From: a virus
Strand: one strand, 5' to 3'
Length of the DNA: 64,000 nt
IMG/VR virus record: IMGVR_UViG_3300033388_006651
Location: 82,770 to 146,769 of that record
In this document: positions 1 through 45,073 of the stretch, in pieces
Position numbering within the stretch: the stretch's first letter is position 1
Layout of the letters: each line of letters opens with the position of its first letter
Position numbers and translations under genes: made by a program
Notes under the pieces: model-generated
The model's input: the letters and a program-made list of their open reading frames with translations, nothing else
The model's database searches: none
What the model was told of the DNA's origin: nothing

Positions 1-525
1 GGCATCATGAACGGCGGCATCGATCAGGCGTACACAGATCGTTTCGGCATCATCGTACAGGAGCGTATCCAGAAGATCCTCCGTGACAAGTATTGGGGCG
101 AGCTCCCCGTTGGCTGTGCCGTCATCGTGCCCACCGACGACCCCGAGTTCCCTTGGTGTGCCAGTGCTCCGACCATGCGTGTGCCCGAATCCGTCAGCAA
201 CACGCTCAATGCCTACCACGCGTTTCGAGCAGTCCGGTTGGCGGTCGAGCGTCACAACAAGGACCCGCGTGCCGCCGAGCACCCGAACTGGACCATCAAA
301 AGCATTTTGTGTCCCGGTCTCGGAACCGCCACCGGCAAACTCGACTACGACCTGTGTGCTCGTCAAATGCTGTGTGCCTACCGGGCGCCGGACTGGCCCG
401 GTGACTGCTCCGAGAATTTCACGACGCCCTGGGCGATGGGACGGTTCATGCGGGGAGAGGCCGACATGGCCGGGGTCTCAACGATTCACCAGACGCCCCA
501 GTTTAAGGTCATTCAGGCGGATTAG
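1..525 (+). CDS. Macrodomain (ADP-ribose binding/hydrolase) protein, 5'-truncated by window edge
   Basis: GIMNGGID, GELPVG, APTMRVP and CPGLGTATG are macrodomain motifs; the frame is open from base 1. Confidence 0.85.
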   Translation, partial: GIMNGGIDQAYTDRFGIIVQERIQKILRDKYWGELPVGCAVIVPTDDPEFPWCASAPTMRVPESVSNTLNAYHAFRAVRLAVERHNKDPRAAEHPNWTIKSILCPGLGTATGKLDYDLCARQMLCAYRAPDWPGDCSENFTTPWAMGRFMRGEADMAGVSTIHQTPQFKVIQAD

Positions 526-549
526 CTACTGGCGCATCTCCGGGGGTTG

Positions 550-581: not shown

Positions 582-1154
582 ATGGCCGCCCAATTCGACA
601 AGCTGCTGGTGCTGGACTTGGATGAGACTCTCATCCACACCACCGGTTTTGGGTTCCCTGGAGACCCTCCGGAGAACACCGCGGACTTTTTCGTGGACGA
701 CGGATTCTTCGCCGTCCACAAGCGCCCCGGAGTGGGGGCGTTCCTGGCCTGGTGCCTGGAGAATTTCCGAGGGGTGGGCGTCTGGACTGCGGGGACTCGG
801 GGCTATGCTCTGGAGATCCTCCCGCACCTGTGCGACCCCAACGATTTCATGTTCGTCTGGGGCCGAGAGCGTTGTGGGTCCCGGCGCGACATGGAGGCCC
901 AGGAGACGCACTGGGTGAAGGACATCGCCAAGCTACACAACCTCGGCTTCTCCAAATCCCAAATTTTGTGTGTGGATGACATCCCGCAGAATTTCGCGCG
1001 TAGCTATGGGAACTATATCCAAGTGCGGCCGTTCCAGGGGGACCGCTCCGACAACGAGCTTGAGTACCTGCGTCGCTACCTCGAGACACTCGGCTCGGTG
1101 CCCAACGTGCGTACCATCGAGAAGCGAGGATGGCGCCCTACGAGTCCGGCATGA
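582..1154 (+). CDS. HAD-superfamily NIF/FCP1-like phosphatase
   Basis: LVLDLDETL, KRPG, VWTAG, KDI and VDD motifs. Confidence 0.9.
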   Translation: MAAQFDKLLVLDLDETLIHTTGFGFPGDPPENTADFFVDDGFFAVHKRPGVGAFLAWCLENFRGVGVWTAGTRGYALEILPHLCDPNDFMFVWGRERCGSRRDMEAQETHWVKDIAKLHNLGFSKSQILCVDDIPQNFARSYGNYIQVRPFQGDRSDNELEYLRRYLETLGSVPNVRTIEKRGWRPTSPA

Positions 1155-2754
1155 TCGTGATCAGGGTTCCGTCGAACTTCCGAAGGTCGAACCCTGTGAT
1201 CGTCTCGTTGTAGGTGGCCAGCACGTTTTTGAGGTACTGGATGGCGACCTTTTCACCAAGCAGGATGCCCTCGTCACCGTCGCTGCGGTAGTGGACGCCG
1301 GCCATGTTGCGGGCCGTGGAGAGGTTGCTGGCGAGTTTTCCGAGTTCGGAGCTGACCGTGATCACATCGACCACGGCAGGGGTGGTGATGGCGGCAGCAT
1401 CAAGCTCGGCCATCGTCTCGTCTCCGGTGATGGATTCCACGATTTTGAAGGTCCCGCTGTCCAGGTCCTTCATCAGGGTGTCGCCGTCGAAGAACGCCTT
1501 GAGGAGCGTCGCACAGGCCCCAGAAAGGACGGCATGGCCTGCCGGGTAACTCGGGTGCGTAGGACTACCCTCCGGGTACATGAGCGGCAGGAGGTACGTG
1601 GCGCTTCCGTTGAGGGTGTTGGCTGCCAGCATGTTGGCTGTGGTCGTTGCACCCAAGACGGAGGCATCCAACAAGTAGTCCTGGGCATCGTCGAGGGTGA
1701 AGTGGACGCGACCGGCGTAGACCTCTGGACGTAGACGCATGTGGGCCACCCACTTCTGCCGCCACGCTGCTTTGAGTGCCAGCTCTGAGACGTGAAAAAC
1801 GCGGTCGAGAATCTCGCCGGCTCCGAGAGTGACGAAGCCGTCCTCGTTTGCCAGGACGGGGATGTTCGGGTCCAGGGGCGCACCGTTCTGGAGCAGGATC
1901 TGCGCTGCGTTGAAGAACGCCAGGCCAGGAGGGTCGTTGTGAACGTAGCTTCCGAGTACTCGAGGAGAGAACGCGCGTTTGCGGGTGCCCGTCAGGTTGG
2001 CGCCGTTTGGCGTGATGCCATTTTGGATGTCGAGCCACCCTGCGGTGGTGATCGATGGAGCCGCATCGCTCTCGGTTTCGATCTCCTGGGCGACGGCGAT
2101 GTTCCCCATGTTGAAATCGTGCAGGAGAAATTGGCTGACGTACGGTCCCACCGTTTCGTCGTACCCAGTTCCACGAAAGAGCGTCCCGCGCGTGACGACG
2201 CCACCGTCTTTGGGCCCCATGAACGATCCAGCCAGGGCGTTTAGATCGGTGAGGAGGGAGGTGACGACGGGTTCTTGAGATGTGGTGCCGTTCTGGATTG
2301 CGTTGAACGATTCGTCACGAAGGAGGGCCATGCCGTAGACCTCGATCATCTCGCCACCGGCCTCGGTAGAGGTCATGGACGGGGCTGCTGGCATCGAGAC
2401 CGAGTAGGCATCTGCGCCGCTGAGGCTGAACGCCAGAGCGGCCTGGGGATTCGTCAATTTACGAACCGCACCGGTGGCACGCACGATGCGATCGAAGTAG
2501 CTCTGGTCCCCGCTGCGGAGGGCCACCTCCATATTCACGAAGTTCTGATCGGTGACTTCGCCGTAGCTGTTGTGCGGCAGTGTTTTCGAGTAGAGCGCCG
2601 TGCGGTAGAGAGTGCCGGCGCGATCGATGACGAGGGCCCGATCGTTGTTGAGCGGTTGGACGACATCTGCCTCTGACCGTTGGAAATTTGCCCGGTCGAT
2701 ACGGAAGTCGTATGGGAGCCCGGTGGGGTCGGAGGGATCTTGGCGCTTCGGCAT
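1138..2754 (-). CDS. Vanadium-dependent haloperoxidase (algal/cyanobacterial VBPO type, PAP2 superfamily)
   Basis: KAAWRQKW..HMRLRPE, HPSYPAGHA and RNMAGVHYRSD vanadate motifs; SKTLPHN and GPYVSQF. Confidence 0.92.
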   Translation of the reverse strand: MPKRQDPSDPTGLPYDFRIDRANFQRSEADVVQPLNNDRALVIDRAGTLYRTALYSKTLPHNSYGEVTDQNFVNMEVALRSGDQSYFDRIVRATGAVRKLTNPQAALAFSLSGADAYSVSMPAAPSMTSTEAGGEMIEVYGMALLRDESFNAIQNGTTSQEPVVTSLLTDLNALAGSFMGPKDGGVVTRGTLFRGTGYDETVGPYVSQFLLHDFNMGNIAVAQEIETESDAAPSITTAGWLDIQNGITPNGANLTGTRKRAFSPRVLGSYVHNDPPGLAFFNAAQILLQNGAPLDPNIPVLANEDGFVTLGAGEILDRVFHVSELALKAAWRQKWVAHMRLRPEVYAGRVHFTLDDAQDYLLDASVLGATTTANMLAANTLNGSATYLLPLMYPEGSPTHPSYPAGHAVLSGACATLLKAFFDGDTLMKDLDSGTFKIVESITGDETMAELDAAAITTPAVVDVITVSSELGKLASNLSTARNMAGVHYRSDGDEGILLGEKVAIQYLKNVLATYNETITGFDLRKFDGTLITIMPDS

Positions 2755-2805
2755 CTCACTTGAGTCCCGGCTATAGGAGGGTCAGTGGTTTTCTGAACAA
2801 AACCC

Positions 2806-2833
2806 TTGACTCTGCGTCTGAGGCGAGTACATT
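2806..2833 (+). promoter_or_regulatory. sigma70-like promoter for the tRNA cluster
   Basis: TTGACT-N16-TACATT about 80 nt upstream of tRNA-His. Confidence 0.55.
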
Positions 2834-2911: not shown

Positions 2912-2988
2912 GGTGTCCGTAGCTCAGTTGGTAGAGCGTTCGCTTGTGACGCGAGAGGCCGCGGGTTCAAACCCCGTCGGACACCCCA
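2912..2988 (+). tRNA. trnH: tRNA-His(GTG) with encoded G-1 and CCA
   Basis: G-GTGTCCG/CGGACAC-C-CCA acceptor; anticodon loop TTGTGAC; GGTTCAAA T-loop. Confidence 0.93.
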
Positions 2989-3073
2989 AAAACCGCACTT
3001 CCGTGCAGTTTAGCTAGCCGAGGCTTCCCTTCGTCTTTGGGACGAAGTGGAGCTTCGGCACGCCGCATTTTAT

Positions 3074-3148
3074 GCCGCGGAAGCTGACTTGGTACGCAAG
3101 CGCTGGACTGAAAATCCGGAGGTGACAGTTCGATTCTGTCCCGCGGCA
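3074..3148 (+). tRNA. trnF: tRNA-Phe(GAA), no encoded CCA
   Basis: GCCGCGG/CCGCGGC acceptor; CTGGA-CTGAAAA-TCCGG anticodon arm; GTTCGATTC. Confidence 0.85.
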
Positions 3149-3170
3149 CAACCTAGAAGGAAACAAGACA

Positions 3171-3365
3171 ATGTCACTCATGTTCACTAATTACGATCGC
3201 CACACCATGTGCACGCATGCTGGCCTCCTTGGTCAAAAGGCCAAGGACGGAACCCAGACGTGTGTTCGTTGCGGCAAGACGGTTCTCCCTGCAGATGTGG
3301 AGCGCTTTACGAGGCCGGCTGGACGCAAGTCCGGTCGGCAGACTCAAGGCACTACCCCTTTGTAG
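3171..3365 (+). CDS. Small hypothetical protein (CxH...CxxC, possible Zn ribbon)
   Basis: AGAAGGA RBS upstream; 64 aa; 3' end overlaps the next tRNA. Confidence 0.45.
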   Translation: MSLMFTNYDRHTMCTHAGLLGQKAKDGTQTCVRCGKTVLPADVERFTRPAGRKSGRQTQGTTPL

Positions 3366-3432
3366 CTGAGATAGATTCAAGCGCGCGGTTGAAGCCCGCG
3401 AGACTCGGGTGCGAGCACCGACTGAGGGACCA
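3356..3432 (+). tRNA. Atypical tRNA-Phe(GAA) with CCA
   Basis: CCCTTTG/CTGAGGG-A-CCA acceptor with a mismatch; CGCGG-TTGAAGC-CCGCG anticodon arm; non-canonical TGCGAGC T-loop. Confidence 0.65.
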
Positions 3433-3450
3433 CAACGGTAGGATAGCAAC

Positions 3451-3966
3451 ATGATTCTCTGCACAGACGTGGACTACAACGACGACGGAACAGCCGTCGC
3501 CGCAGGCGTGACTCTCGAGAACTGGTCGGACGACCACGCGCTCGAGGAGCTCGTGGTGCACGTCGATGCCGTCGAACCTTACGTGCCCGGTCAGTTCTAC
3601 AAGCGAGAACTTCCGTGCATCCAAGCCATCATGGCGAAGCTGACTGGTGTCAGCCTCGTCATCGTGGACGGGTACACGTGGCTCTCGCCAGGACGCCCAG
3701 GTTTGGGAGCCCACCTGTGGGGTGATCTTGGGGGCTCGATCCCAGTGGTCGGTGTCGCCAAGGCGTACTTCAAAGATACGACGGCCACCGAAGTGTTCCG
3801 AGGTACCAGCAAGCGCCCGCTGTATGTGTCAGCCCAAGGGATGGACGACAGCGACGCGAGCATCCTGGTGCGCAACATGGCCGGGCGCAATCGGTTCCCG
3901 GAGATGCTCAAGCGCGTGGATCACCTGTGCCGGGGCCATGTTCTCCCGAAAGCGACGGCGTCATGA
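3451..3966 (+). CDS. nfi: Endonuclease V
   Basis: DVDY, PYVPGQFYKRELP, IVDGY, GLGAHL, IGVAK-like VGVAK and RGTSKRPLYVS motifs. Confidence 0.92.
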   Translation: MILCTDVDYNDDGTAVAAGVTLENWSDDHALEELVVHVDAVEPYVPGQFYKRELPCIQAIMAKLTGVSLVIVDGYTWLSPGRPGLGAHLWGDLGGSIPVVGVAKAYFKDTTATEVFRGTSKRPLYVSAQGMDDSDASILVRNMAGRNRFPEMLKRVDHLCRGHVLPKATAS

Positions 3967-5510: not shown

Positions 5511-6041
5511 TTACGGGTTGAATTTACCGCCGGGGAAATCGTAGATCGTCACCGGGATTCCGTGAGTCACGAAATGCTCGTCGATGAGCACTTCGATCCG
5601 AGCCCAGGAGCCGCCTGCGAGCCAGCAGCCCAGCCTGGGCATGTGAATTGAAACATTGCGTTCAGGGTTCTTGAGAGCGTACGCAGCCAGGTATTTGAAT
5701 CCCTGGCTGATGGCCTTGTAGCGGATGGGGGGCTCACCGCCTTTGGCGGTACGGATGCCCTGTTGTCCGATGATGTTGGCGACCGCGATGTTCTCTTCAA
5801 CAGGGACGAGCTGCATCGCCCCGAGGGGAAGTTTGTTGTCCCATTTCGATGCCCATAGCCGGTACATCTCTTCGGGGCGAGCCCATTGCTTGGAGAGCGA
5901 CATTACGAATCCGGCGCCCCATGCCCCGATACTGTTTGAACAATGTGCGATGATCTTGAGACCGTCACCCTCTGGCGCAGTGGCGTCGCCCTCGACATAC
6001 ATGACGAGGGGGGAGGGGGTCTGCTTTTTCGCGGCTGCCAT
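5511..6041 (-). CDS. Macrodomain protein, Poa1/TARG1/DarG-like
   Basis: YVEGDAT, IIAHCSN.IGAWGAGF, VANIIGQ and IHMPRLGC.LAGGSW motifs. Confidence 0.88.
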   Translation of the reverse strand: MAAAKKQTPSPLVMYVEGDATAPEGDGLKIIAHCSNSIGAWGAGFVMSLSKQWARPEEMYRLWASKWDNKLPLGAMQLVPVEENIAVANIIGQQGIRTAKGGEPPIRYKAISQGFKYLAAYALKNPERNVSIHMPRLGCWLAGGSWARIEVLIDEHFVTHGIPVTIYDFPGGKFNP

Positions 6042-6056
6042 CACCCATTATACGCG

Positions 6057-7049
6057 TCAGCTCAGGGCGAGTTCCCGTTTCTGGGCGTTCTCCGGGATGG
6101 AGGCCATTGCACGAAGATCGGCCATTGATCCCCGGAAGTAGTTGGCGTCCATCTCACCGCTCGTACCGGGCGGTCTTCCGTCTGGACGAGGCTCGTTGTT
6201 GGCGTGCTGGTGGATCACCCAGTCCCAGCCGGGGATCTCCCCAGTGGGTTCCTCGTAGATCCCTTTGTAGCCAGAGACGATCCACAGCGGGCACTGCGAC
6301 AGCGACATCGTCTTGGCCAGCCTGTATTTCCAGAAGTTCGGCCCGGTGTAAACGATGGGCCAGACCCCAAGTTCGTCCTTGATGTACTGGATGAACGCCT
6401 CACAGAAGACGACCACGTCGTTGGCTTTCACGCCGGCCTTGGTCGCGCGATCGTCCCACTCGATGTCCAACACGGGCGGCAGCATCCCGGGCAGGATCTC
6501 TCGGCCGTAGTGATCCAGGAACCATTCGGCTTCGTTGCGGCCATCCTCGGCGAACCCTTTTTCGCCGTCGCTGTTCTTGAGGGAGACTCGAGCGAAGTGG
6601 TAGGCGCTCCAGATCTTGCCGGCCGCGATCGCCTTCTCCTTGTTCTCAGCGAAACGGGGATCGGCGTAGCCTTCGCCTTTCTTGTCCTTGCCGCCTTCCG
6701 TGGCCTTGAGGATGACGAAGGGGAAATCGACCATCCTTTCGTGATCGACGGGCCCTTGATGTTTGGCGACATCGTAACCAAGCACGTCGTCGCGCTCGGT
6801 GAAGGCCGTCTCCCAGAGTTTGTGCGCTAGACGGAGGACCTCTGGCTCAGGGGCTTTGGGTTCTGGGAGTTCGGCGCCCTCGTTCGTCCACTTCGTGTTC
6901 TCAATGTGGAGTTCCTCGGTGGGTTTCCCTTTGGGAGCACCGTCCCGTGGAGGGTTCGAGAAGAACCCCAGGATACGCGCAATGAGGTCCGCGAAAGAGA
7001 ACACGGGGACTTTGTCACCGTGCATCTGGTCCCTGATTTCAACTTCCAC
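6057..7049 (-). CDS. GH25 lysozyme (muramidase) with N-terminal extension
   Basis: GYDVAKHQG, KATEG, AYHF, PPVLDIE, IVYTG and DAN motifs. Confidence 0.9.
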   Translation of the reverse strand: MEVEIRDQMHGDKVPVFSFADLIARILGFFSNPPRDGAPKGKPTEELHIENTKWTNEGAELPEPKAPEPEVLRLAHKLWETAFTERDDVLGYDVAKHQGPVDHERMVDFPFVILKATEGGKDKKGEGYADPRFAENKEKAIAAGKIWSAYHFARVSLKNSDGEKGFAEDGRNEAEWFLDHYGREILPGMLPPVLDIEWDDRATKAGVKANDVVVFCEAFIQYIKDELGVWPIVYTGPNFWKYRLAKTMSLSQCPLWIVSGYKGIYEEPTGEIPGWDWVIHQHANNEPRPDGRPPGTSGEMDANYFRGSMADLRAMASIPENAQKRELALS

Positions 7050-7079: not shown

Positions 7080-7093
7080 CGACCCCCTCGGTG

Positions 7094-8128
7094 ATGGCTG
7101 AGATGATCCAGGGACTCGATGTAGCTCACCACCAGGGCAACGTAGATTTCGCGGAAGTCGCCGGTGATGGTTTCCGCTTCTGTGTGTGCAAGGCGACGGA
7201 GGGGGCCGACTACGAGGACCCGAAGTTTCGTGAAAACATGCGGAAGATCGCGGAGCTGCGTGTGGTCGATCCGTCCTTTTTCGGGGGCGCGTACCACTTC
7301 GCTCGACCGGACAACCGCACCGGCCGTGCTGGCGGTGAAACCGAAGGTCGCTGGTTCTCCCAGATTCTCAACGAGGTGTCGGCCGAGTACGGGTTCTCCA
7401 TCGAGCATGATTTTCTCGAACCCGCACTCGACTTCGAGAAGTACAGCGACTCAAGCGGCACCGACAACATCCCGTGGATCGAAGGGTTCCTCGATGTCCT
7501 CAAGAGTGAGACGGGTCGCGACGGGATGATCTACACGGGACCGAACGTGTGGATGTATGAGGTCAGCAACACGACCCAGTTCAACGACTACCCACTCTGG
7601 GAAGTCACTTACAGTTCGCAGGGATCGAACCCCGATGCCCAACCTCCCCGGATGCCGAAGAACGAACCCGACGAGCCGTACTGGGAGTGGACGTTCTGGC
7701 AGTGGAGCGGTGGAGGAGACTATGCCTACTACCACCGACAGTTCGGGGACATCGCCGGCATCCCCAGCGGCATCGCGGATGTGAACCGTCTCAACGGAGG
7801 TGAAGAGCGGTTGCTGGAGCTCGCCAACGCTGGCCATTTGCCACCTCCCCCGGTGAACGTGACGTGGCCTCGACCTCCTGAGCAGATCGATCTGAACGAT
7901 TTGCGTGGTGCGTACTCCGAGTACGTGTCCCGCGTGCAGGGTCTCCTGCTGGCGCACAAGTACGGACCCAGCGGACTCACCGGTTCCAACGGTTTGCCCG
8001 ACGGGTTGATGGGCAACAAGACCGAGACCTATCTCGAGGACTTCAAAGCGAAGCGTGCCCTGCCAGCCGATACGGTCGTGGACTGGGACACCTGGTGGGC
8101 CCTGGCCTACGACAACCTGCGGGCTTAG
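7094..8128 (+). CDS. GH25 lysozyme with C-terminal peptidoglycan-binding domain
   Basis: GLDVAHHQG, KATEG, GAYHF, ALDFE and WTFWQWS; C-terminal VQGLL..DGLMG..T...L..D.VV. Confidence 0.92.
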   Translation: MAEMIQGLDVAHHQGNVDFAEVAGDGFRFCVCKATEGADYEDPKFRENMRKIAELRVVDPSFFGGAYHFARPDNRTGRAGGETEGRWFSQILNEVSAEYGFSIEHDFLEPALDFEKYSDSSGTDNIPWIEGFLDVLKSETGRDGMIYTGPNVWMYEVSNTTQFNDYPLWEVTYSSQGSNPDAQPPRMPKNEPDEPYWEWTFWQWSGGGDYAYYHRQFGDIAGIPSGIADVNRLNGGEERLLELANAGHLPPPPVNVTWPRPPEQIDLNDLRGAYSEYVSRVQGLLLAHKYGPSGLTGSNGLPDGLMGNKTETYLEDFKAKRALPADTVVDWDTWWALAYDNLRA

Positions 8129-26577: not shown

Positions 26578-27291
26578 GTGGCACAATTCTCGAACTTTGC
26601 AGCCCTACTGAACTTGGGGGGAGGCGGCGGTGGCGGTGGCGACCTGGCCAGCGTCCTTGTTACTGGGAACACCACTGGTGTTGACGATATCGAGTTCAGC
26701 TCGGGAACTGGGATCGTCACAACGGGCAATGCTGTTGGCCCTGGTTTCGATCTGGGCATCACCGCAGGAGACTCCACCGCAGGAGCCTTTGACGGCGGCG
26801 ATCTCATCCTCAGTGGAGGGGCCGGCTCTGGCGGCAACCCCGATGGTGAAGTTCGCGTTGATGGCGATCTGACCGTCACGGGAACGCTGACCATGAGCAA
26901 TCTGCTCGTCGGAACAGGGACGCCCGAAGGAGCGGTAGCCGCTCCGCCTTCGACGTTGTTTCAACGAACGGACGGCGACAGTTCCACCAACGCAAACCTC
27001 TACGTCAAAATGTTGGGCGTTGGAGTGACCGGGTGGGCGCCTTTGGTGCCCCCGGTCTTCGAGACATTCGTCGCGGTCGGCGTCACCACCTTCGTGACGA
27101 GTCGAGCCGTGTTCCCTGACGCCGCTGGGGTGGGCATGGAGAACATCGCTGTCTTTTGGAACGGCGTCTACCAAAGGCTGGGTGCGTTGGACGACTACAC
27201 CATCGTGTTCGCCGGGGCCTTCGCCACCATCACTTTCACTTCGCTGCCACCGAACGGTGACTTCATCACCATCCGGTACTTGCCGGCCTAA
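26578..27291 (+). CDS. Gly-rich fibre-like structural protein
   Basis: LASVLVTGNTTG and GTPEGAVAAPPSTLFQRTDG...LYVK...TGW tail-fibre motifs. Confidence 0.75.
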   Translation: MAQFSNFAALLNLGGGGGGGGDLASVLVTGNTTGVDDIEFSSGTGIVTTGNAVGPGFDLGITAGDSTAGAFDGGDLILSGGAGSGGNPDGEVRVDGDLTVTGTLTMSNLLVGTGTPEGAVAAPPSTLFQRTDGDSSTNANLYVKMLGVGVTGWAPLVPPVFETFVAVGVTTFVTSRAVFPDAAGVGMENIAVFWNGVYQRLGALDDYTIVFAGAFATITFTSLPPNGDFITIRYLPA

Positions 27292-27339
27292 TCCACTGGC
27301 AATCGTAGCCGCACTCGTAGCCGCTGCAAGAAACACACC

Positions 27340-30300
27340 ATGGCACTCGCACCCACGAATCTTGATCCCGATGGCCAAATCCGGAACATGCTCGTCTACG
27401 ACGACGAGGTGCTCCCCGGCTCCGGACTCGAAGTCACTGGCGGTACGATCGAGGACAACCTCCACGGCATCATCTCGCAGATCAACCGCATCCTGAATGC
27501 GACGGCGGTTGGCAACGAATGGTGGGTCGATATCAACACGCCCTCCTCGTTCGAGAATGGTGCGAAGCGTGGTGTTCTTGATCTCAACACCGACCTGCAC
27601 GACCTCCAGCGTAAGCGCATCCTCAAGAGGGTCAGTGCGATCGCTCTGGATGTTCCGGTCACGACTGCCGCGACCTCGACGCTGACGGGTACTGCCAACT
27701 TCGCGAACACCGAGACGGTTACGATCGACGCCAAGGTTTACACGTTCCAGACCGTTCTGACGGACGTAGACGGCAACGTGGCGATCGGTGTTGACCTTGC
27801 CACGAGTCTTTCGAACCTGGCGGGCGCCATCAACCTCACGGGTGTCGCTGGTACCGATTACGCCACGTTGATGACGCTCCACCCGACGGTGTTTTCGTCG
27901 GCGATCACGGCCACCACGATGGTGGTTACGGCCAAGACACAGGGTGCCGCTGCTGACTCCATCGTTACGACCGAGACAGGCGCCAACGCTTCATGGCCTG
28001 GCGGCACGCTTGGAGCGGGAACCGGTGGTGGTAGCACGACCGATTTCATCGTTCTGGCCAACAGCCAGCTTCCGTCCACGACCACCGCGGCCATTGGATC
28101 CGTGACGACCCTGGGTCTTGTTGTTGCGACGGCGGGATCTTTCGGGACTGCTGGTAGCCTCGACGAGGTCACTGGTGCCAATGCCCTGCAACCGAAGAAC
28201 CTGTGGATCCTTGTGGATTCCGCTACCGGTGATCCTCTGACCCGTACGGGCGGAGTTGCCGATGACACCCAGGTCTACGGACTTGCACAAAGTCAGAGTG
28301 CCATTGATGGCTCGACCATCACGGGTGGTTCCGGCAACGGTTTGCAGATCAGTTTGGTGGTCCGCGACGGTGCGGGTGCTGATCTCGAACTGATCACCGC
28401 TGGTGATGTTCCAAGCTCGGTGACGATCGACTACGCATACGTGCGTCGTGACGCTTTCGAGGACTGCCCGGAAGAGGCATGGCTCGGTGGTGGGTTCGTC
28501 GATTCCGGTGTGTCCACCGCAACTCGTCAGGCGGCCTACGACAACCAGGGTGTTGGGGTCGTTACGACGGGTACGAACGCAACTCTCGACGTGGGTCTTG
28601 GGTTCATTTGGGAGATCGGCGATGGGGCCAGTGCGCCCGTGTTCACGGTCACCGAAGACTCGGGTGGTAGCGCGACTTCCGTAGTCATTGGAACTGCGGC
28701 GGACACGTACACGAACAATGCGCTCGATGTTGATTTCACGCAGGGTATCCAGGTCGATACCGACGCCACGATCAATCTCGGCATCACGGCGAACCAGATC
28801 GATTTCACGGCTGCCGGTAAGGTGACGGGAACCGGCACGATGCTGTTCACGGCCGACTCGGCCAACGTCACGGTGAGCACGACGACAGGCGGCAACGTGC
28901 TCCTGAGTTCGGCGGCAGCTATTGATGCGCAAGCTGTCGGAGCGGTCACGATCGACTCTTCCGGTGGTGCGATCGGTATCGGTACGGACGCGGACACCGG
29001 AGCCGTCAATGTCGGCACCGCAGGGGCCCGTGCGGTCACGGTTGGCAGCGTCACAGCAGGCACAACGCTTCTACTCAACTCCGGTTCGGCCGGTGTTGAT
29101 CTCAGTGCCCCTTCAAATCTTGGCGAACTATTCACGCTGACCAACACGGATGGCACCAACGGCCACGCTGTTGAGATGTTCGTCAACGACGTGACCACGA
29201 ACCCCGACACAGTGGGTGTTGCGGCTCCTGTTGGTTCTGTCATGTGGAAGGACTCTTCCGGTGGCGGCGTTGGTGTGGGTGAAGCGTGGCTCAAAACTGG
29301 CCCGAACGACGACGATTGGGAGCAAATCCAAACAGGCGCTGACACCTCCAACTCGCTCCAGCAAGCTTACGTGGCTGGCAACACCATTACGGTGGACTCG
29401 ACCGAAGGTGCTCTGGAGTTCATCGGCACGGTTGATGATGCGACTACGGTTCTGACTCTTACTGGTGGAAACCACACGGGTGCGACCGCTGGAAACATCC
29501 TTAACATCAGCAATGATGCCTCGGCGCTTGGCGATGCTGTCTTCATCAATAACCTTGGTGGCGGTTCCGCTATCGAGGTTCAGGATGGCGGCGTCGCGGT
29601 TATGGACATCGCAAGCACAGGTGCCGTTACGTTCACCCCGACTTCGGGAACGGATTTCACGGTTACGACGGCGGTTGCAGGCAATGTGGACATCAACGCG
29701 GGTACGGCGGTTACGATTGATGCAACGCTTGGTGGGATTTCTCTCGATGCAACGGGTGCTTCGAACTTCACGACCACTTCGGGCAGTTTGACCCTCAGCA
29801 CAGCGGATTCGACGGCTGGGCAGAACGTGGTCGTCTCCGCGGGTGATTCCTCGGTGGCAGCGACAGTCGGTGGTGCTATTTCGGTCACGGCCGGTGACGG
29901 CGCAACAACCGCAGCGGGCGGCGCTCTTGACTTGGATGCAGGTGCAGGTGGTGCAACCGGAACTGGTGGTGCTGTCACTTTTGACTCTGGTGCTGGTGGT
30001 GCAACATCCGGTGCTGGTGGTGCAATGACCTTCACCGCGGGTGCTGCGGCCACTTCGGGTGCCGGTGGTGTTTTCACCGCCACAGCAGGAGCCGGTGCTG
30101 GGAACGGCAGCGGCGGTGATATGGCCCTCGCTGCCGGCACGAACGGTGGAACTTTCCCAGGAATTGCGGGCATTGCAACCCTTACAGGTGGTGTCGGTGT
30201 AGCAGCCAGCGGAGGCGACGCGCGGTTGACAGGCGGTTCTGCGACAGTGGGCTCGGGTGGTCGTGCGCAGGTTACGGGAGGTGCTGGGGGTACTACTAAC

Positions 30301-32133
30301 GGCGACGGAGGTGATGTTCTTGTCACAGGTGGTGCCGGTGGTGTGACCAACGGCCAAGGTGGCGACATCATTATTGCCAGTGGTGTCGGGGCAGGTTCTG
30401 GTGGTGACGGCACCATCGACATCGGTATCACGGGTACTCCTCAGATCACGATCGGTGGCGCCACGATGGCGGACGGAATCAGTTTCGTTAGCGGGAGTGG
30501 CGAAGTGGACGCTTTCCTGTCTTACGACAACTCGGCAGGCACCCTTGGCGATGCCGCCTCAATTTACATTGGCGATTCGGATCCCACGGCTGCCACTTGG
30601 GGTGCGAATAACGCTTCGGAAAGCTCTCTGTTCCACCGTGGAACGGCAACGGCCGGTGAGCTTTGGCTGAAAACGGGGGCCGCGGCAACGGCGTGGACTC
30701 GGATCGCAACGACTGCCGATACCGGCTCCACATTGGAAGCTGCATGGACAGCCGCAACGGGTGCGGGTGCGACTCTGGGCACTTCTGGGTTCACGGGTCG
30801 AATCACCGACACGGACATTTATCTCATCGAGACGCTGACCACGAATGACCGGTTGCTGTCTTTGGCGGCGGTTGCAGGTGCAGATGTGGTGGGCATCGGA
30901 AACTCCATCGGGGCCTCCGTTCTTGACCTGGACTCGGGTACAGGCGGCACGGCCATCGACTCGACGGGTTCAATCGACATCACCAGTTCTCTTGCTGGGG
31001 TTTCGATTGATGCGACGGGGGGTGGTAACTTCACCACCGTTGGTGGCGACCTGACTCTGAGCACAGGGAACACAGGTGTCGCTGCTGACGTTGTGGTCTC
31101 TGCGGGCGATTCGTCCACGGCAACCACGATTGGTGGTGGGGTCTCAGTCACAACAGGAGACGGCAACACCACAGGCGCAGGCGGTGTCCTTGCACTCACA
31201 GGTGGCCTTGGTGGAGCAACTGACGCCAGCGCTGGCGGTGCCATCAACATCACGAGTGGCTCCAGCGCAGCGGCCAACGGAAACAGCGGTGCCATCAACA
31301 TCGAAGCTGGTGCCGAAACAGGCACGGGTTCCGAAGGTGCCATCAGCATCGGTGCAGTGAACGCAGGTGCGATGCTCATCGGCATCAACGGTGGCGGGGT
31401 GCGAATCGCAGATTCTTTGAGCCTTGGTTCCACGGCGGGCATAAGCGCTACCGCGGACACCACCATCACGTTGACCACTTCGGACATCGCGGATGCTTCG
31501 GGCAGCGACATTTCGGTCAATGCGGCCACCTCTTCTGGTGCGGGCAACGACGGTGCTTCCATCCGACTCCTTCCTGGTGATGGTGGAACCACGGGTGCTC
31601 ACGGTTCCGTGGATATCGACGGTGCTTTCGATGCGGACGAAGCCTTCCTTACGCTGACGGGTAGCGGTGCTTCGGGCAACTCTGATCTCTATGCTGGTTC
31701 GACACTGCCTGCTCACACGGCGGCTGCCGGCTCGTTATACTTCCGCAACGTCGGGTCGGGCCTCACCGGAGGCTCTGTCTACGTTCAGGTTGATGCTTCT
31801 ACGGCGGGTGAGGGTTCGGATTGGGAGCAACTCGCGAGCAGTGGTGCTGCCCTCACCCGTCAGCACTTCCAAACGACGATGTTTGCGGACGTGTCGGCGG
31901 GCAGCCCCATCAACACCGCGGCCATCAACGGAACGATGCCGTCCAAGCCGGCTTCGGGTTTCACGTTCAACGACGACACGGACATGTACCTCAACGGGAT
32001 CATCCTCTTCAACGGGACGGAGGTTGAGGACGGTACGGGTGATGACATCGATGTGACCGCCATCACGGGTCCCACGTTCCGCGTCGATGACGTGATCACC
32101 ATCATCTACTACACGAACTCCACTGCCGGGTAA
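27340..32133 (+). CDS. Giant (1597 aa) Gly/Thr/Ala-rich fibre-like virion protein
   Basis: Repeated GG.(V/I).(I/L).AG units; three GS(L/V)-type W-ending knob motifs. Confidence 0.8.
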   Translation: MALAPTNLDPDGQIRNMLVYDDEVLPGSGLEVTGGTIEDNLHGIISQINRILNATAVGNEWWVDINTPSSFENGAKRGVLDLNTDLHDLQRKRILKRVSAIALDVPVTTAATSTLTGTANFANTETVTIDAKVYTFQTVLTDVDGNVAIGVDLATSLSNLAGAINLTGVAGTDYATLMTLHPTVFSSAITATTMVVTAKTQGAAADSIVTTETGANASWPGGTLGAGTGGGSTTDFIVLANSQLPSTTTAAIGSVTTLGLVVATAGSFGTAGSLDEVTGANALQPKNLWILVDSATGDPLTRTGGVADDTQVYGLAQSQSAIDGSTITGGSGNGLQISLVVRDGAGADLELITAGDVPSSVTIDYAYVRRDAFEDCPEEAWLGGGFVDSGVSTATRQAAYDNQGVGVVTTGTNATLDVGLGFIWEIGDGASAPVFTVTEDSGGSATSVVIGTAADTYTNNALDVDFTQGIQVDTDATINLGITANQIDFTAAGKVTGTGTMLFTADSANVTVSTTTGGNVLLSSAAAIDAQAVGAVTIDSSGGAIGIGTDADTGAVNVGTAGARAVTVGSVTAGTTLLLNSGSAGVDLSAPSNLGELFTLTNTDGTNGHAVEMFVNDVTTNPDTVGVAAPVGSVMWKDSSGGGVGVGEAWLKTGPNDDDWEQIQTGADTSNSLQQAYVAGNTITVDSTEGALEFIGTVDDATTVLTLTGGNHTGATAGNILNISNDASALGDAVFINNLGGGSAIEVQDGGVAVMDIASTGAVTFTPTSGTDFTVTTAVAGNVDINAGTAVTIDATLGGISLDATGASNFTTTSGSLTLSTADSTAGQNVVVSAGDSSVAATVGGAISVTAGDGATTAAGGALDLDAGAGGATGTGGAVTFDSGAGGATSGAGGAMTFTAGAAATSGAGGVFTATAGAGAGNGSGGDMALAAGTNGGTFPGIAGIATLTGGVGVAASGGDARLTGGSATVGSGGRAQVTGGAGGTTNGDGGDVLVTGGAGGVTNGQGGDIIIASGVGAGSGGDGTIDIGITGTPQITIGGATMADGISFVSGSGEVDAFLSYDNSAGTLGDAASIYIGDSDPTAATWGANNASESSLFHRGTATAGELWLKTGAAATAWTRIATTADTGSTLEAAWTAATGAGATLGTSGFTGRITDTDIYLIETLTTNDRLLSLAAVAGADVVGIGNSIGASVLDLDSGTGGTAIDSTGSIDITSSLAGVSIDATGGGNFTTVGGDLTLSTGNTGVAADVVVSAGDSSTATTIGGGVSVTTGDGNTTGAGGVLALTGGLGGATDASAGGAINITSGSSAAANGNSGAINIEAGAETGTGSEGAISIGAVNAGAMLIGINGGGVRIADSLSLGSTAGISATADTTITLTTSDIADASGSDISVNAATSSGAGNDGASIRLLPGDGGTTGAHGSVDIDGAFDADEAFLTLTGSGASGNSDLYAGSTLPAHTAAAGSLYFRNVGSGLTGGSVYVQVDASTAGEGSDWEQLASSGAALTRQHFQTTMFADVSAGSPINTAAINGTMPSKPASGFTFNDDTDMYLNGIILFNGTEVEDGTGDDIDVTAITGPTFRVDDVITIIYYTNSTAG

Positions 32134-32147
32134 CCGGTGAACTAGGG

Positions 32148-32173
32148 GCCCCCGGTCAGTGACCGGGGGTTTT
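32148..32173 (+). terminator. Intrinsic terminator
   Basis: GCCCCCGGTC-AGT-GACCGGGGGT followed by TTT. Confidence 0.7.
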
Positions 32174-32206
32174 CAGGGCTGTGCAAAACAAATGGGAGAA
32201 AACAAA

Positions 32207-32770
32207 ATGCCGGACGGAAACCGACTTCGAGAGCAAGTCGATGACATGACCATGCGGGCCGAAGTGAGCGCTGCCGTGGCCAAGGATCATCAAAAGATCA
32301 CAATCGATCGCCAAAACCTAGCGAATCGAGAGCTCCAAAAACTGCGTCTTTTGGCGGGGGTTTTTGCGATGGGGGAACAGGTCCTTCGGCAAAAGCAGAA
32401 GAGTCTTCTCGAAGGCGACGAAACGCCCAACGAAATCGCACTCGGTGGGCTCGAGGACGCGATCGTCAACGTGCTGGGACTTGCCAAGCAGGCCGACCGC
32501 CACATTTCACATAACGAAGGGGCTGTGGCTGCACTTCAAGCCATGGAAGAGACCTTTCGACAAAAGGCCCAGGACGCAACGTCCAGAGCCCGTGGGATGG
32601 GCGTGGTGGGGAAACGAGCCATCGGGGTCGCGGAGTCCCGGAACCCTCCCCAAACCGCTCAGGGAGCGCCTCAGAGCCTTGACCAGACACCCCTGGCCTC
32701 TTCGGCTCAGGGGGTCAGTCCCCTGTCGGGTTTTTTCGACGCGACGCCCACCGTCCGCACGTCGGACTGA
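32207..32770 (+). CDS. Coiled-coil hypothetical protein (possible fibre chaperone)
   Basis: GGAG RBS; helical; sits between fibre genes. Confidence 0.65.
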   Translation: MPDGNRLREQVDDMTMRAEVSAAVAKDHQKITIDRQNLANRELQKLRLLAGVFAMGEQVLRQKQKSLLEGDETPNEIALGGLEDAIVNVLGLAKQADRHISHNEGAVAALQAMEETFRQKAQDATSRARGMGVVGKRAIGVAESRNPPQTAQGAPQSLDQTPLASSAQGVSPLSGFFDATPTVRTSD

Positions 32771-32850
32771 TTCCGCGAAAGAGCCTATGAGCCGCCCCTA
32801 AGCAGGGGTGGCCTCTAGGCGGTCACCCCGCGAACGGAGCCTAAGTAACC

Positions 32851-35800
32851 ATGGCAAACCCTCCCGCCAATCGACGCCCAGGTGTAGACGCCGACATTTT
32901 TCAAGGAACGTGGCTCCGCGGATTCGACGTGCCGGCGGGCAACAACGATCCCGCTGCGAATCCTTGCGATCTGATCATCTCGAACGGCAAAAGTCAGATC
33001 GACGAGACCGTCTCCGATCTGTACATCTGGAACAGGACGCTAGATCGGGAACAGCCCATGTTCATCTTCGCGGTGGGGAACGACTTTACGTCCCTCGTTG
33101 CAAAGTTTGGCGTTTACGCGGGAGTTCTGCCTGATCCTAACGGGATCCTCACGGATGAGATCGGGTCGCTTTACCTTTCCAACAATCCGGCTGCTCTTTG
33201 GCAGAACCAAAACGGCGGCGACACTTGGGAAAAGATCTCCGACGACCTCGGTGGGGAGAGCCTCCAGGAGACGTTGGCCATCGGCAACGTCACCGGCGGT
33301 TTCAACCTCCAAGTCACCAACGGTGACTTCATCATTGGTGTAGAGAACAGCACCGGTGGTACTGGCGCTGATGTCCAGGTCTTTGGTGGTCCCGCTACTG
33401 GGATAACTGGAGACGGTGGCCAAGCCGTCATCGTCGGAGGCACTTCGGTTGGCGGCAACACGGGTGCTGTTGGGGTGTTCTCTCGAGACACCACCAACGC
33501 TGGAGTTTCAGGCAACGTTAATGTCCGTACCGGTACTTCCCTGTTGGGTGGCAACAGCGGTAGCATCGACATGCGGACTGGCAACACGGGAGCTCCTGGA
33601 ATTCTCGGCGTCAGCGGTGTTTTCGGGTTCATCGGTGGTGATTCGCTCACGACAGGTGCGCTTGGAGTAGGTGGCCAGCTCTTTGCTCGAGGTGGTAGCG
33701 CAACCGAGGACGGTCAGGGCGGCAACATGCTGCTCTACGCTGGCCATGCGGTTACCGTACCGCCAGCTCCGTTCATTCCGGTCAACGCTGCGGGACAGGG
33801 CGGCAACGTCCTTCTCCAGAGTGGCAACTCGTCCGGCACTCGGGCCGGTGGCCTTGTTGTTCTGACGGGTGGCACGGGAGGGTCGAGCGGAGGAGTCGGT
33901 GGCACCATCATTCTCGACCCCGGTGCGGGAGGTGGTGGCGCCGGTGACGGTGAGGTCGTCGCCACAAAAGTTCTGCGTGCCGACAACATCAAGCGCGGGG
34001 ATTCGGATCCCAACTCAGTCGTCTCCGGCAACGAAGGTGATGTCTACCAGCGCACGCAGGGTGGGATTGGTCAGGTGTGGGTCAACACCAACGGTTCGAT
34101 CACGGGTTGGAAACAGCTCGCGTTCGCTGGTGATCTGGTTGAAGCCCTCCAGCAAATGCAGAACGGCTATGTGTCGCCGTCCATGATGGGGTTCGGAGGC
34201 ACAGACGAAGAACTCTACAGTGACGTAGGACTCTACAAGGGCCTTCGCACTGACGAAAGTCTGGGAGGCACGGTCGATGGCTCTTTCGTTGACAGTGGTC
34301 CTGTTCTCCGTTTTGCGGTCTCTGAATCAATTGGCGCTCTAAACCAACGTGCCGGTTTGGACATGATCACATCCGGGGTCATGGGACCTGGTGTGCGTCT
34401 TGAAAATCGGTTCTTCGCTACCTTTGCGTTCAATACCCGTTCCCTGGACTCGAACACTTGCCGGTTTTTCCTTGGATTGACCGGCAACACGTTGGCGGCC
34501 CAACTGGGCACGGATCTACCTGGCGGTGATTACATCGGGTTCATGCGCAGCAACTTGAACGCCAACTGGTTGGTGGTTCATCGTGGCGGAGGTGCCGCGA
34601 ATTTTGCCAACACGGGCATCGCAAAAACCACGACGGACGTTGATACGGACGTTTACTATTTCATCGTTGACGCCACGGATGGTTTAACTCCGCTCGTTCG
34701 GTTCTTCATTCTTGATCCGGACCTGAACGTCATCAGTAGCATCACGGTCAATTCGGATCTTCCTGATGTCACGGCGACTGAGTTGTGGCCCGCAGTGGGT
34801 GTTCAAAACGTCAATGGTGCGGGTGGCGGAACCTCTTTCCTCAAAATGTCCCATGCGGGCATCACCACCAAAGCGGCGACTGTTGCCCAAGGTGGGGGAA
34901 CTGGCACCGGTGGCCTCACGCTTGGTCAAGTTCTCCTCAACGGGAACCAAACCGACGCCATACTCATCGAGGTCAACCAAGGTAGCGGCCTGTTGGGCGT
35001 CGTGGACGACAACGCTGGAGACGGTGCCGATGTCCTTGTCTTCGGTGGTGCGACGACCCTGGTCGGCAACGACACTGGCGGCGTCATTGTTGCGTCCGGT
35101 AGTGCTTTCGGAGGCGGGGCCGAAGGGGCCGGAGCCACGACGGGCGCTCTCGTTCTGACATCCGGATTCCAGCTTGTTGTCACGACTCTTGGCGACACCG
35201 GCATCGTCGATATTCAGAGCGGTGACCATGCCGGCACTGATGGCACGACGGGTGACTTTTTTCTTCGTACCGGTGGTTTCACCAACGGCGCTGCGGGTAC
35301 TCGGGTTCAGGGCGACATTCTGATCGCCGCTGGATCGTTCATTCCGAACACGGCAACGACCACCGGTGAGATCATCATCAAGGGTGGTAGCTCGAGCCTC
35401 ACGGGCGTGGATGGTGGCGATGTCACCATCATGTCGGGTGAGAACAATTCGGCGATCGGCGACACGGGTGACATCGACATCGAGACCTTCGATGCGAACC
35501 TGGATGGTGACTCCGGTGTCCTGGAGTTGGCCACTGGTACGGGCGGCTCGAACGCTGGTGACTCGGGTTTCCTTACACTCGCAACTGGGGCCGCGATTGC
35601 CGGCAGTTCTGGCGCCATCGGATTCGGTACGGGTGCTGCGGGTAACGGCGCAGCCGGCGGCATCCTGATGCTTATCGGTGACAGCACCGTGGGGAATGGT
35701 AGCGCAATCGCTCTGTTCTCCGGCACCACCACGGACGCGGCTGGTTTTGGTGGAGACATCGAATTTACTCCGGGCACCGGTCCTCTTGGGGACGGTGCGG

Positions 35801-40149: not shown

Positions 40150-40171
40150 CGGCGTAGGAATCTAGACGCAG

Positions 40172-40205
40172 AAAAGCCCGTGGAGCTGGAGCCCTACGGG
40201 CTTTT
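40172..40205. terminator. Bidirectional terminator
   Basis: AAAAGCCCGTGG...CTACGGGCTTTT between convergent genes. Confidence 0.8.
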
Positions 40206-40214
40206 CGCTGTGGT

Positions 40215-40937
40215 TTAGTCCTTTTTCACGCACACCTTGATTGATCCGGTCCAAGTATCGCACTTCATTGTTCCATCGAGGCAATCATCGTCGGTTTCAC
40301 AGAAACGAGTGCAGCAGAAGTCATCCCAGGATTCGCTCGGCCACTGGTTATCGGCTGCGGGGTCAATCTCGCACCAGTCCATGGCAAAGAGGTCCGACTC
40401 GACGCAGGCCAAATGGAGGCAGCCCGTGTAGGTCGTGTTGAACCCGCCGCCACTCCACTGATCGCAACCGCTCTTGTGCGAAGTGCCGTCCCCTTCGCTG
40501 TCGCGAAGGGGGAGGCAGTACATGCCCGTGACCTCTTGTTGACCCGGTCCAGGTGAGACGAAGCCGAGGACACAGGTGTGGGGAACGATTTGGCTGTCAG
40601 GGTTGTAGAGAACCATCGGACCATCGGCGCATTGGCCGATGCCCTCGTGCATCTCAATTGGGTTGCAAGGGTAGTAGGGCGCGATGGGTTCCTGGGCCGT
40701 GCCGGTTTCACCATCGCCGTCGCCGTCGCCGTCGCCATCGCCCGTGGAACCATCATCAGTTTCACCTTCGGCATCGCCCGTTTCGGATCCATCGGTGCCT
40801 TCGGCCGTGCCTGCTTCTGAGGCGTCGGATCCTGTCAAGGTGCCGTCTGTGGCTCCCTCGAGGTTAGGGGAGAACTCTGTGGCGCAAGCAGTCAGGAGGC
40901 TCGCGGCCAGCAACATCGTGAAAAAAGTTCGGTTCAT
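40215..40937 (-). CDS. Myxobacterial-type Cys-rich lipoprotein with GDGDGDG linker
   Basis: Lipobox LTA|C; acidic T/G/D linker; Cys-rich C-terminal domain; GGAGG RBS. Confidence 0.85.
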   Translation of the reverse strand: MNRTFFTMLLAASLLTACATEFSPNLEGATDGTLTGSDASEAGTAEGTDGSETGDAEGETDDGSTGDGDGDGDGDGETGTAQEPIAPYYPCNPIEMHEGIGQCADGPMVLYNPDSQIVPHTCVLGFVSPGPGQQEVTGMYCLPLRDSEGDGTSHKSGCDQWSGGGFNTTYTGCLHLACVESDLFAMDWCEIDPAADNQWPSESWDDFCCTRFCETDDDCLDGTMKCDTWTGSIKVCVKKD

Positions 40938-40958
40938 CGGGAAACTACCTCCACAACA

Positions 40959-40984
40959 TACACGGAGCCCCGGAAGATTTTACA
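40959..40984 (-). promoter_or_regulatory. Class-A motif TGTAAA-N14-CGTGTA
   Basis: Exact spacing, upstream of the lipoprotein RBS. Confidence 0.7.
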
Positions 40985-41359
40985 TCAAACTCTTGATCCG
41001 CCTGGGATAACGCTTCGCAAAAAGCCCTCGGAGCCCTACTAGGGGCCCCCTATAGGGGAAAACATGTTTTTGGCGCTAGGAACGCATTGCGATCCCGCGA
41101 AAGGAGCCTTCTGGAGCCCTTGGGCGGAGTGCGCAGCGAATTCTCCTATGGGCGCCCCTCAGATGAGAAGGCCGGATGAACACCACACCCAGCATTTTTT
41201 CGTCGATCTCGTTGGCGCGCAAAGCGGCCTTTTCCTTTTCCACGAATGCGTGGAGTTCGAGGGGCGTGGCCGAAACGTGCGTCCTGGTTTCGCAAACTTC
41301 GCGTCAACGCACGCGGTTTTAATCCCTCTATGGGCCTCCCTTCATAGGAACGCACGTAG

Positions 41360-44722: not shown

Positions 44723-44730
44723 GTGTAGCT

Positions 44731-45063
44731 ATGGTTGTCATCAAACAAAATGGAATTCCAGGGGGAGCTATAAAGTTCACGTCCGTTAAGATCGCGGCCT
44801 ACGACATTTTGGCTGACGAACACATCCAGTACGACCCGACTGCGGGGGGCTTCACTTTGAAGTTGCCCCCTACGGCGGCAACGAACACCCAGGTTGGTTT
44901 CAAAAACTGCTCCACAAGCACTAACAGCGTCACCATCGACGGGAACGGGCACAACGTCGAAAACCCTTCAACTCCGGGAGCGACGGTCGCATCTTTTGTG
45001 ACAACGACTGCGGGTCTATCAATCATTTGCCAGTTCAACGGAACCGAATGGTGGATCATTTAG
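44731..45063 (+). CDS. Short tail-fibre-type domain protein
   Basis: TLKLP...VGFKN...VTIDGNG...FNGTEWWI. Confidence 0.7.
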   Translation: MVVIKQNGIPGGAIKFTSVKIAAYDILADEHIQYDPTAGGFTLKLPPTAATNTQVGFKNCSTSTNSVTIDGNGHNVENPSTPGATVASFVTTTAGLSIICQFNGTEWWII

Positions 45064-45073
45064 GAGAAATGTT

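Follow-up and report, generated by a model that had tools for sequence, protein, structure and literature searches.

A vanadium haloperoxidase-family gene on an uncultured giant phage and its virus-only relatives

The gene and its product

The DNA analyzed here, a window of 64,000 nucleotides, covers bases 82,770-146,769 of a 146,769-bp linear IMG/VR viral record (IMGVR_UViG_3300033388_006651; 28% complete by CheckV). Close to its first base lies a minus-strand gene whose product belongs to the vanadium haloperoxidase (VHPO) family and retains the active site of that family except for one serine. Within the family it falls in a large branch that, as far as sequences tell, is found only in viruses. 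We put at roughly 60% the probability that the gene encodes a working VHPO of bromoperoxidase architecture, carried as a stand-alone gene by a giant uncultured phage.

The open reading frame is complete, as a preliminary description of this DNA had stated, with an ATG start and 538 codons before the stop (Table 1). That description had extended the feature to 2790; the reading frame itself stands, and the extra bases belong to the region upstream of the ATG, where they include a conserved motif. The start is secure because the frame is open for just 9 codons above the ATG (547 residues from stop to stop) and because the orthologues in three other phage contigs (L007, L008 and L013) begin at the identical MPKRQDP or MKRQDP. 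With so few codons available above the ATG, a hidden leader is excluded. The N-terminus is hydrophilic, the highest Kyte-Doolittle value for any 12 residues within the first 70 being 0.42, and no twin-arginine (RR) motif was found in it, in agreement with the earlier statement that a signal peptide is lacking. Purifying selection on the gene is strong, with dN/dS of 0.07-0.21 between the query and four phage orthologues (five sequences in all), a comparison in which synonymous sites are saturated.

Table 1. Coordinates of the VHPO gene, its motifs and other features of the contig. Positions refer to the window unless marked G000 (numbering of the whole record).
Feature	Position	Strand	Basis or remark
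VHPO-family coding sequence (P0001)	1138..2754	minus	ORF list and translation; 538 aa + stop, ATG start
W-x2-K-x7-RP, codons 331-343 (W331, K334, R342, P343)	1726..1764	minus	1QI9 alignment (A. nodosum W338, K341, R349)
HPSYPAGH, codons 400-407 (His400, Ala405, Gly406, His407)	1534..1557	minus	1QI9 alignment, 265 homologues
R-x5-H-x3-D, codons 482-492 (Arg482, His488, Asp492)	1279..1311	minus	1QI9 alignment, 265 homologues
16-nt spacer or short leader, ending in weak Shine-Dalgarno-like GTGAG	2755..2770	minus	read from the sequence
CCTATAG box, candidate phage promoter element	2771..2777	minus	16 nt before the ATG; putative function
NIF/FCP1-like phosphatase gene	582..1154	plus	Pfam NIF, 8.5e-29
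Macro-domain protein, 352 aa	-533..525 (G000 82236..83294)		phrog_2613, 1.9e-48
Sigma-70-like promoter, TTGACT-16-TACATT	2806..2833	plus	conserved in L007 and L008
tRNA-His(GTG)	2913..2988		
tRNA-Phe(GAA)	3356..3432		
Mechanical ORFs over the tRNA genes	2967..3149; 3174..3464		probably spurious
Phosphatase gene	5511..6044		phrog_335 member
GH25 muramidase gene	6057..7049	minus	
GH25 muramidase gene	7091..8128	plus	C-terminal regions of phrog_1493 and phrog_2649
Co-directional giant-ORF block	26578..53415	plus	
Perfect 12-bp palindrome	41047..41058		CCTAT on both strands
Amidase_2/PG_binding_1 lysin gene	53915..55420		
Intein-split genes	57436..59460; G000 33517..37650	plus (window interval)	FMN-reductase-like and SNF2 helicase genes

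Family identity and predicted fold

When the protein was compared with the Protein Data Bank (PDB) by phmmer, vanadium bromoperoxidases (VBPOs) were the sole matches. The enzyme of Corallina officinalis ranked first (1QHB, E 1.3e-60), ahead of those of C. pilulifera (7QVW, 5e-60), Ascophyllum nodosum (1QI9, 9.8e-60) and then Acaryochloris marina. The alignment to 1QI9 runs from end to end, with query residues 9-537 against 11-534 at about 29% identity, and residue equivalences were fixed by gap-free alignment to this enzyme.

An AlphaFold2 model built from 31 relatives had a mean pLDDT of 93.4 and a pTM of 0.93. It predicts the two-helical-bundle VBPO fold over the whole chain. In Foldseek the model gave TM scores of 0.87/0.84 (rmsd 2.7 Å) with 1QI9 and 0.85 with 1up8/1qhb, and 3bb0 was also among the matches. 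The proposal that this is a VHPO of the algal and cyanobacterial bromoperoxidase style was therefore borne out, both by E values near 1e-60 to VBPOs and by the predicted fold.

The protein shares the PAP2 acid phosphatase superfamily and lies outside its PhoN/PhoC family. Assignment to that family was considered and rejected, since the Pfam PAP2 profile, with a cut-off of 27.2 bits, gives it a score of 15.4 and the fold does not match. Foldseek with the model reached small PAP2 acid phosphatases only at E > 0.1 (PhoN/PhoC at E 0.17-1.2, with TM to the query of about 0.2). The motifs differ as well: the spacing is K-x7-RP here and K-x6-RP in PAP2 acid phosphatases, and the phage protein has PAGH and AR where they have PSGH and SR.

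Active site

The three vanadate-site motifs noted in the preliminary description are all present: KWVAHMRLRP (residues 334-343), HPSYPAGHA (400-408) and RNMAGVHYRSD (482-492). The equivalent residues of 1QI9 are K341 for K334, R349 for R342, H411 for H400, G417 for G406, H418 for H407, R480 for R482, H486 for H488, D278 for D274, W338 for W331 and S416 for A405, and the K334-R342 spacing is that of K341-R349. The putative vanadate ligand is His488, which aligns with His486 of 1QI9 (His496 of the Curvularia enzyme). Residues predicted to contact the vanadate oxygens (K334, R342, G406 and R482), the putative acid-base His407 with its Asp partner D274, and the second-sphere residues W331 and H400 are all in place.

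These residues are nearly invariant. In an alignment of 265 homologues, D274, W331, K334, R342, H400, G406, H407, R482 and H488 are each kept in at least 260 sequences. The K, R and P of the first motif are found in 264-265, W331 in 260, R482 in 261, H488 in 263 and D492 in 253. Among 31 sequences of the viral clade, D274, W331, H400 and the first-sphere residues, Ala405 aside, do not vary. Activation of peroxide and oxidation of halide require the D274-H407 pair, W331 and H400, whereas hydrolysis of phosphate esters does not. Because these residues are conserved, real haloperoxidase chemistry is favored. We take D274, W331 and H400 to be haloperoxidase-specific second-sphere residues, with roles as established for the A. 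nodosum and Curvularia enzymes.

The sole first-sphere residue replaced is the Ser of PSGH, which is Ala405 in the phage protein (Ser416 in A. nodosum, Ser402 in the Curvularia enzyme). Ser402 of the Curvularia enzyme forms a hydrogen bond with vanadate (PMC9144378, which also lists the vanadate-site residues). The substitution had been pointed out in the preliminary description as a property of this protein that may narrow its range of halides, and while the substitution itself is real, it is not special to this protein. Position 405 is Ala in 211 of the 265 homologues, Ser in 44 (three close phage relatives have Ser) and another residue in 10, and most members of the viral branch, like most of the cellular branch, have Ala. 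Ala405 is thus a trait of the subfamily and no peculiarity of one phage. A Rhodopirellula VHPO tested in 2026 was considered as a member of this subfamily and rejected; it belongs to an iodoperoxidase-like group.

Relatives and phylogeny

A representative protein library contained 2,922 homologues at E ≤ 1e-3. Closest to the phage protein is a tight group of 34 cluster representatives of about 535-545 residues, all metagenomic and 60-88% identical to it; identity then falls to 58% or less. A search of viral databases for homologues was productive: 30 IMG/VR contigs carry relatives, the largest being 619, 284, 261 and 260 kb, and six of the 30 are named as giant-virus metagenome-assembled genomes (MAGs). 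In prokaryotes, one genome was scanned for each of 185,579 species; more than 583 homologues emerged, of which the best is only 43% identical (from Nannocystaceae, other Myxococcota and Verrucomicrobiota).

Viral and cellular proteins separate cleanly. In an unrooted FastTree phylogeny of 184 sequences, one side (81 rows) holds none of the 80 cellular rows and the other (103 rows) holds all 80, with a split support of 100. An IQ-TREE analysis of 52 rows under LG+C20 likewise has a single split that parts 27 viral from 25 cellular sequences (SH-aLRT 100). Both trees thus place the phage gene in a virus-only branch. The cellular set consisted of the 80 best matches to the query, so that the absence of cellular sequences from the branch covers identities down to about 39%, and the deepest viral subclades could have unsampled cellular kin.

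Genomic contexts agree with the trees. Those of 11 members of the viral branch all looked viral, ten of them phage-like and one giant-virus-like. The phage-like contexts included genes for portal, tail sheath, tube and baseplate proteins, thymidylate synthase, EF-Tu/EF-Ts, release factors, MazG, Ro60-vWA, ThyX/RNR and homing endonucleases; the giant-virus-like context (L129, the contig of P0144) included an HMG box, a eukaryotic topoisomerase I and a cathepsin. On these sequences, the large branch that includes the phage VHPO gene is exclusively viral.

What most distinguishes the branches is the N-terminus. A twin-arginine motif is present in 33 of 52 cellular-branch proteins and in 1 of 108 viral-branch proteins, and a hydrophobic leader in 35 of 52 and 3 of 108, respectively. 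Only four alignment positions tell the branches apart (S269, E304, T371 and D494). Branch-specific changes of the active site were ruled out, as these four lie outside the listed catalytic residues.

In two other lineages, L009 and L013, a gene of the fatty-acid-hydroxylase family lies less than 10 kb from the VHPO gene. In another phage (contig L014, of P0047), a gene for Fe/Mn superoxide dismutase, which makes H2O2, lies about 2.6 kb from the VHPO gene, with EF-Tu and EF-Ts nearby.

The phage

The contig is a 147-kb piece of an uncultured phage of roughly 0.5-0.6 Mb. Around the VHPO gene, the order of more than 20 genes is the same as in a 618,736-bp IMG/VR genome (CheckV, 92% complete), which has its own VHPO gene at the corresponding place. 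At 79% identity, the two copies are among the best conserved genes of the syntenic block. Two further IMG/VR contigs of the lineage also carry the gene. GC content is even along the window (0.55-0.64 in 2-kb steps). The contig encodes a family A DNA polymerase (phrog_17, 2e-89), whose nearest deposited relative is that of a 485-kb 'uncultured phage' (LR745208.1, 47% identity), and three lysins, namely two GH25 muramidases from divergent genes and one Amidase_2/PG_binding_1 lysin. It also encodes GroEL, an NAD-dependent ligase, DNA methyltransferases, a macro-domain protein and tRNAs, and it contains giant open reading frames of 1120-2432 codons, one with a Laminin_G_3 domain.

Upstream region and neighboring genes

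The VHPO gene forms a solitary unit that has a promoter region of its own and is flanked by tRNA genes on one side and by a phosphatase gene on the other. A CCTATAG box precedes the ATG by 16 nt (Table 1), and the first five bases, CCTAT, are invariant at this position in the phage studied here and in L007, L008 and L013, whose VHPO proteins are 64-79% identical. The Shine-Dalgarno-like position reads GTAGG, GTGAG or TAGAG in the relatives. Of the 75 CCTAT sites on the contig as a whole, 20 lie between genes, compared with an expected share of 8.1% (p=1.5e-6). The element is probably a component of a phage promoter.

The preliminary description had called this motif a putative late promoter shared with fibre and lysin genes. 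The motif itself is real, and a similar box (YCTATGG) precedes both the gene for the 1120-residue, fibre-like Laminin_G protein and a site in the amidase lysin gene that may be an inner start. Its late class is not established, because CCTAT also precedes genes of mixed kinds, including non-structural ones (a vWA protein, a methyltransferase-like ORF, a GH25 lysozyme and a giant ORF). Two other approaches to a motif were abandoned: naive 7-mer enrichment upstream of ORF calls gave no result, and for CCTCTA only 4 of 31 matches were near starts, with the VHPO site fitting only if an extra base is allowed. Before the fibre-like gene there is also a perfect 12-bp intergenic palindrome, CCCCTATAGGGG, which carries CCTAT on both strands.

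The NIF/FCP1-like phosphatase gene is convergent with the VHPO gene, and the 3' ends of the two overlap by 17 nt. The 619-kb relative has a syntenic copy (52% identity), and on the contig a gene for a macro-domain protein lies upstream of the phosphatase gene. On the other side, a sigma-70-like promoter faces the VHPO 5' end and points away from the gene, toward tRNA-His(GTG) and tRNA-Phe(GAA). Two mechanically called ORFs overlap these tRNA genes. A second phosphatase gene, a phrog_335 member, lies nearby.

Proposed function and alternatives

The most likely chemistry of the protein, judged from its residues and family, is the halide oxidation of VHPOs. Vanadate would form a covalent bond with His488, with Lys334, Arg342, Gly406 and Arg482 holding it in place. 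Hydrogen peroxide would then convert it to a peroxo-vanadate, aided by His407 and Asp274, and bromide or iodide would be oxidized to hypohalous acid near Trp331 and His400. The Tat signal that exports its cellular relatives has been lost from the viral branch, so the enzyme would be made in the cytoplasm of the infected cell, and only lysis or carriage on particles would take it outside. We infer vanadate binding, halide oxidation and a biological role alike, and for the last of these the candidates are removal of peroxide and the generation of a halogenating oxidant, either within the cell or once the enzyme has been released. Genes for Fe/Mn superoxide dismutase, AhpC-TSA and catalase were sought in four genomes of the phage lineage and none was found, which is neutral for a role in peroxide removal.

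Several observations weigh against a working haloperoxidase on a phage. Phosphate is present at millimolar concentrations in the cytoplasm and competes with vanadate. Ala405 replaces Ser416, which hydrogen-bonds vanadate, and a literature search for a characterized enzyme with Ala at this position found none. Profile searches were poor: besides the sub-threshold local PAP2 score, the VCPO_2nd profile PF22778.2 has no match on the phage protein and gives 12.6 against 27 bits on an 88%-identical relative (P0002), and NCBIfam profiles do not match the phage protein. Precomputed matches to PF22778.4, in turn, cover all close homologues; as version.2 misses what version.4 matches, a plain Pfam scan can overlook the Ala-type subfamily. 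No neighbor is conserved across 34 viral loci beyond close synteny, and because no partner gene is shared among viral lineages the context gives no clue to a substrate. The Pfam families Terminase_6N, Terminase_6C, Phage_capsid, Phage_portal and Phage_sheath_1 were not found in the contig, in the 619-kb relative or in two other relatives, so that the identification as a phage rests on evidence other than these virion hallmarks. Finally, VHPOs and PAP2 acid phosphatases share catalytic residues, and apo-VHPO hydrolyzes phosphoesters (PMC9144378; compare 3bb0 among the Foldseek matches).

This last point leads to a different function, in which the leaderless protein remains in the apo form in the phosphate-rich cytoplasm and acts as a phosphatase or phosphotransferase, or by other non-halogenating chemistry, on a phage or host substrate. 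Its shared catalytic residues, the sub-threshold PAP2 profile as the sole local Pfam match, a vanadate contact loosened by the Ser to Ala change and the two phosphatase genes nearby would all suit such an enzyme. We nevertheless regard it as decidedly unlikely, because in size and two-bundle fold the protein matches VBPOs and not the 220-residue acid phosphatases, and because D274, W331 and H400, which belong to haloperoxidase chemistry, are nearly invariant. Nor does a cytoplasmic location preclude halogenation, since cytoplasmic halogenating VHPOs occur in Streptomyces (NapH1 type). That the gene is cellular, either through a chimeric contig or because a cellular or plasmid-like element was called a virus, is hardly credible. 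The record is linear and 28% complete, and neither it nor the 619-kb relative has a recognized capsid, portal, terminase or sheath family. Against this stand the even GC content and the collinearity with an independent 619-kb genome, both of which speak against a chimera, a possibility that the preliminary description had raised. The gene recurs on two further contigs of the lineage, no cellular homologue exceeds 43% identity, and the contig carries phage-typical genes (lysins, the phrog_17 polymerase, homing endonucleases and inteins).

A further proposal is about where the enzyme acts and does not conflict with the enzymology favored here: the VHPO would be made late, carried on the virion or freed at lysis, and its HOBr or HOI would attack matrix, signals or competitors outside the cell. 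A phage product can exit without a signal peptide, in keeping with a viral branch that has lost its Tat leader, and outside the cell vanadate would be obtainable and phosphate too scarce to compete. In two other phages the position of the gene is suggestive. One copy (P0058) lies between tail sheath/tube and baseplate genes on the same strand, and another (P0039) heads a co-directional block that runs into a portal gene. The YCTATGG boxes before the fibre-like gene and the possible inner lysin start are also in its favor, whereas the occurrence of CCTAT before non-structural genes is not. The gene is in or beside virion modules in two or three of the 11 contexts and in a non-structural setting in eight, and among homologues of at least 600 residues no fusion to a virion protein was found in the phage branch. 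In the phage studied here the gene stands alone, outside any virion block, and nothing ties it to the virion as had been suggested. Extracellular action therefore merits consideration, though we doubt it. It is also doubtful, to a somewhat greater degree, that the leaderless branch as a whole has a virus-specific job, whether extracellular production of HOBr or HOI, by lysis or on particles, against signals, matrix and competitors, or intracellular halogenation of viral DNA or proteins.

Comparison with known systems

VHPOs are associated with seaweeds, fungi, cyanobacteria and a few bacteria, and are responsible for natural emissions of bromoform and iodine, the destruction of quorum-sensing signals and the making of halogenated natural products. 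VBPO I of the brown alga A. nodosum is an extracellular, disulfide-linked dimer; the phage product, known here from its sequence, is leaderless. The two have in common the K-x7-RP spacing and the D, W, K, R, H, G, H, R, H set, and differ in overall identity and at Ser416. The Corallina enzymes (1QHB, 1UP8, 7QWI and 8VH0) include the best PDB match and are nearly identical to the phage protein in motifs 2 and 3, but they have Arg where the phage and A. nodosum proteins have Trp (W331), as well as extra inserts (596 residues). Closer in subfamily are Tat-exported bacterial homologues from Myxococcota, Verrucomicrobiota, Acidobacteriota, Streptomyces and cyanobacteria, named 'vanadium-dependent haloperoxidase' by NCBI. 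Most of these also have Ala at position 405, and only the four positions given above separate them from the viral branch; they are at most 43% identical to the phage protein, form the separate clade and have twin-arginine leaders. A literature search found no biochemical characterization of them.

Among viral proteins of predicted structure (BFVD), a fold search returned three giant-virus proteins with the VHPO fold and no phage protein. These are from Sylvanvirus (A0A3G5AI90), Hokovirus (A0A1V0SGK0) and Yasminevirus (A0A5K0U6L7); they have the same fold (TM 0.74-0.86) but are 25-30% identical and belong to viruses of eukaryotes. They are annotated merely as 'PAP2 superfamily protein' or as uncharacterized. 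The giant-virus MAG sequences fall in the same virus-only branch as the phage VHPO. The sole virus-encoded halogenating enzyme that we found in the literature is VirX1, a flavin-dependent halogenase of a cyanophage (Gkotsi et al. 2019). As described in the papers citing it (PMC11312541, PMC13519999), it is unrelated in fold, cofactor and mechanism, using FADH2 and O2 and not vanadate and H2O2.

The preliminary description did not recognize the VHPO as a standard phage gene, and rightly so. It matches no PHROG family, tblastn against 50,697 deposited phage records gave no match, and a full-text literature search found no description of a virus-encoded vanadium haloperoxidase. The papers found do not describe a diversified virus-only VHPO branch with members in many lineages of large phages and giant viruses. 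If the enzymes are active, viral infection would be a new source of reactive halogen, giant phages would possess a peroxide-driven chemical tool, and the branch would offer a large, robust and compact set of enzymes for biocatalysis. Should a virus-specific job prove true, large phages and giant viruses would be direct and unrecognized catalysts of reactive-halogen and organohalogen chemistry.

Other features of the contig

Further searches for structural proteins were made. The 905-residue portal protein of another VHPO-carrying phage, used as a query, had no match. Scans of the putative structural block with PHROG and Pfam, covering large ORFs and small ones, recognized only Laminin_G_3 and lysins, and two of these ORFs, compared with deposited phages by tblastn, had no match there. 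The co-directional giant ORFs of the block encode proteins of 1597, 2432, 1120, 585, 633 and 542 residues and end at the Amidase_2/PG_binding_1 lysin gene. Apart from the Laminin_G_3 domain of the 1120-residue protein, they have no Pfam or PHROG family and no match in a deposited phage.

The two GH25 muramidase genes diverge from a short shared intergenic region that contains the near-palindrome GATAGGGAGGCTATCG, and the plus-strand copy matches the C-terminal regions of two endolysin families (Table 1). Inteins with a LAGLIDADG endonuclease split the FMN-reductase-like gene and the SNF2 helicase gene, and further free-standing LAGLIDADG and HNH homing endonucleases are scattered over the contig.

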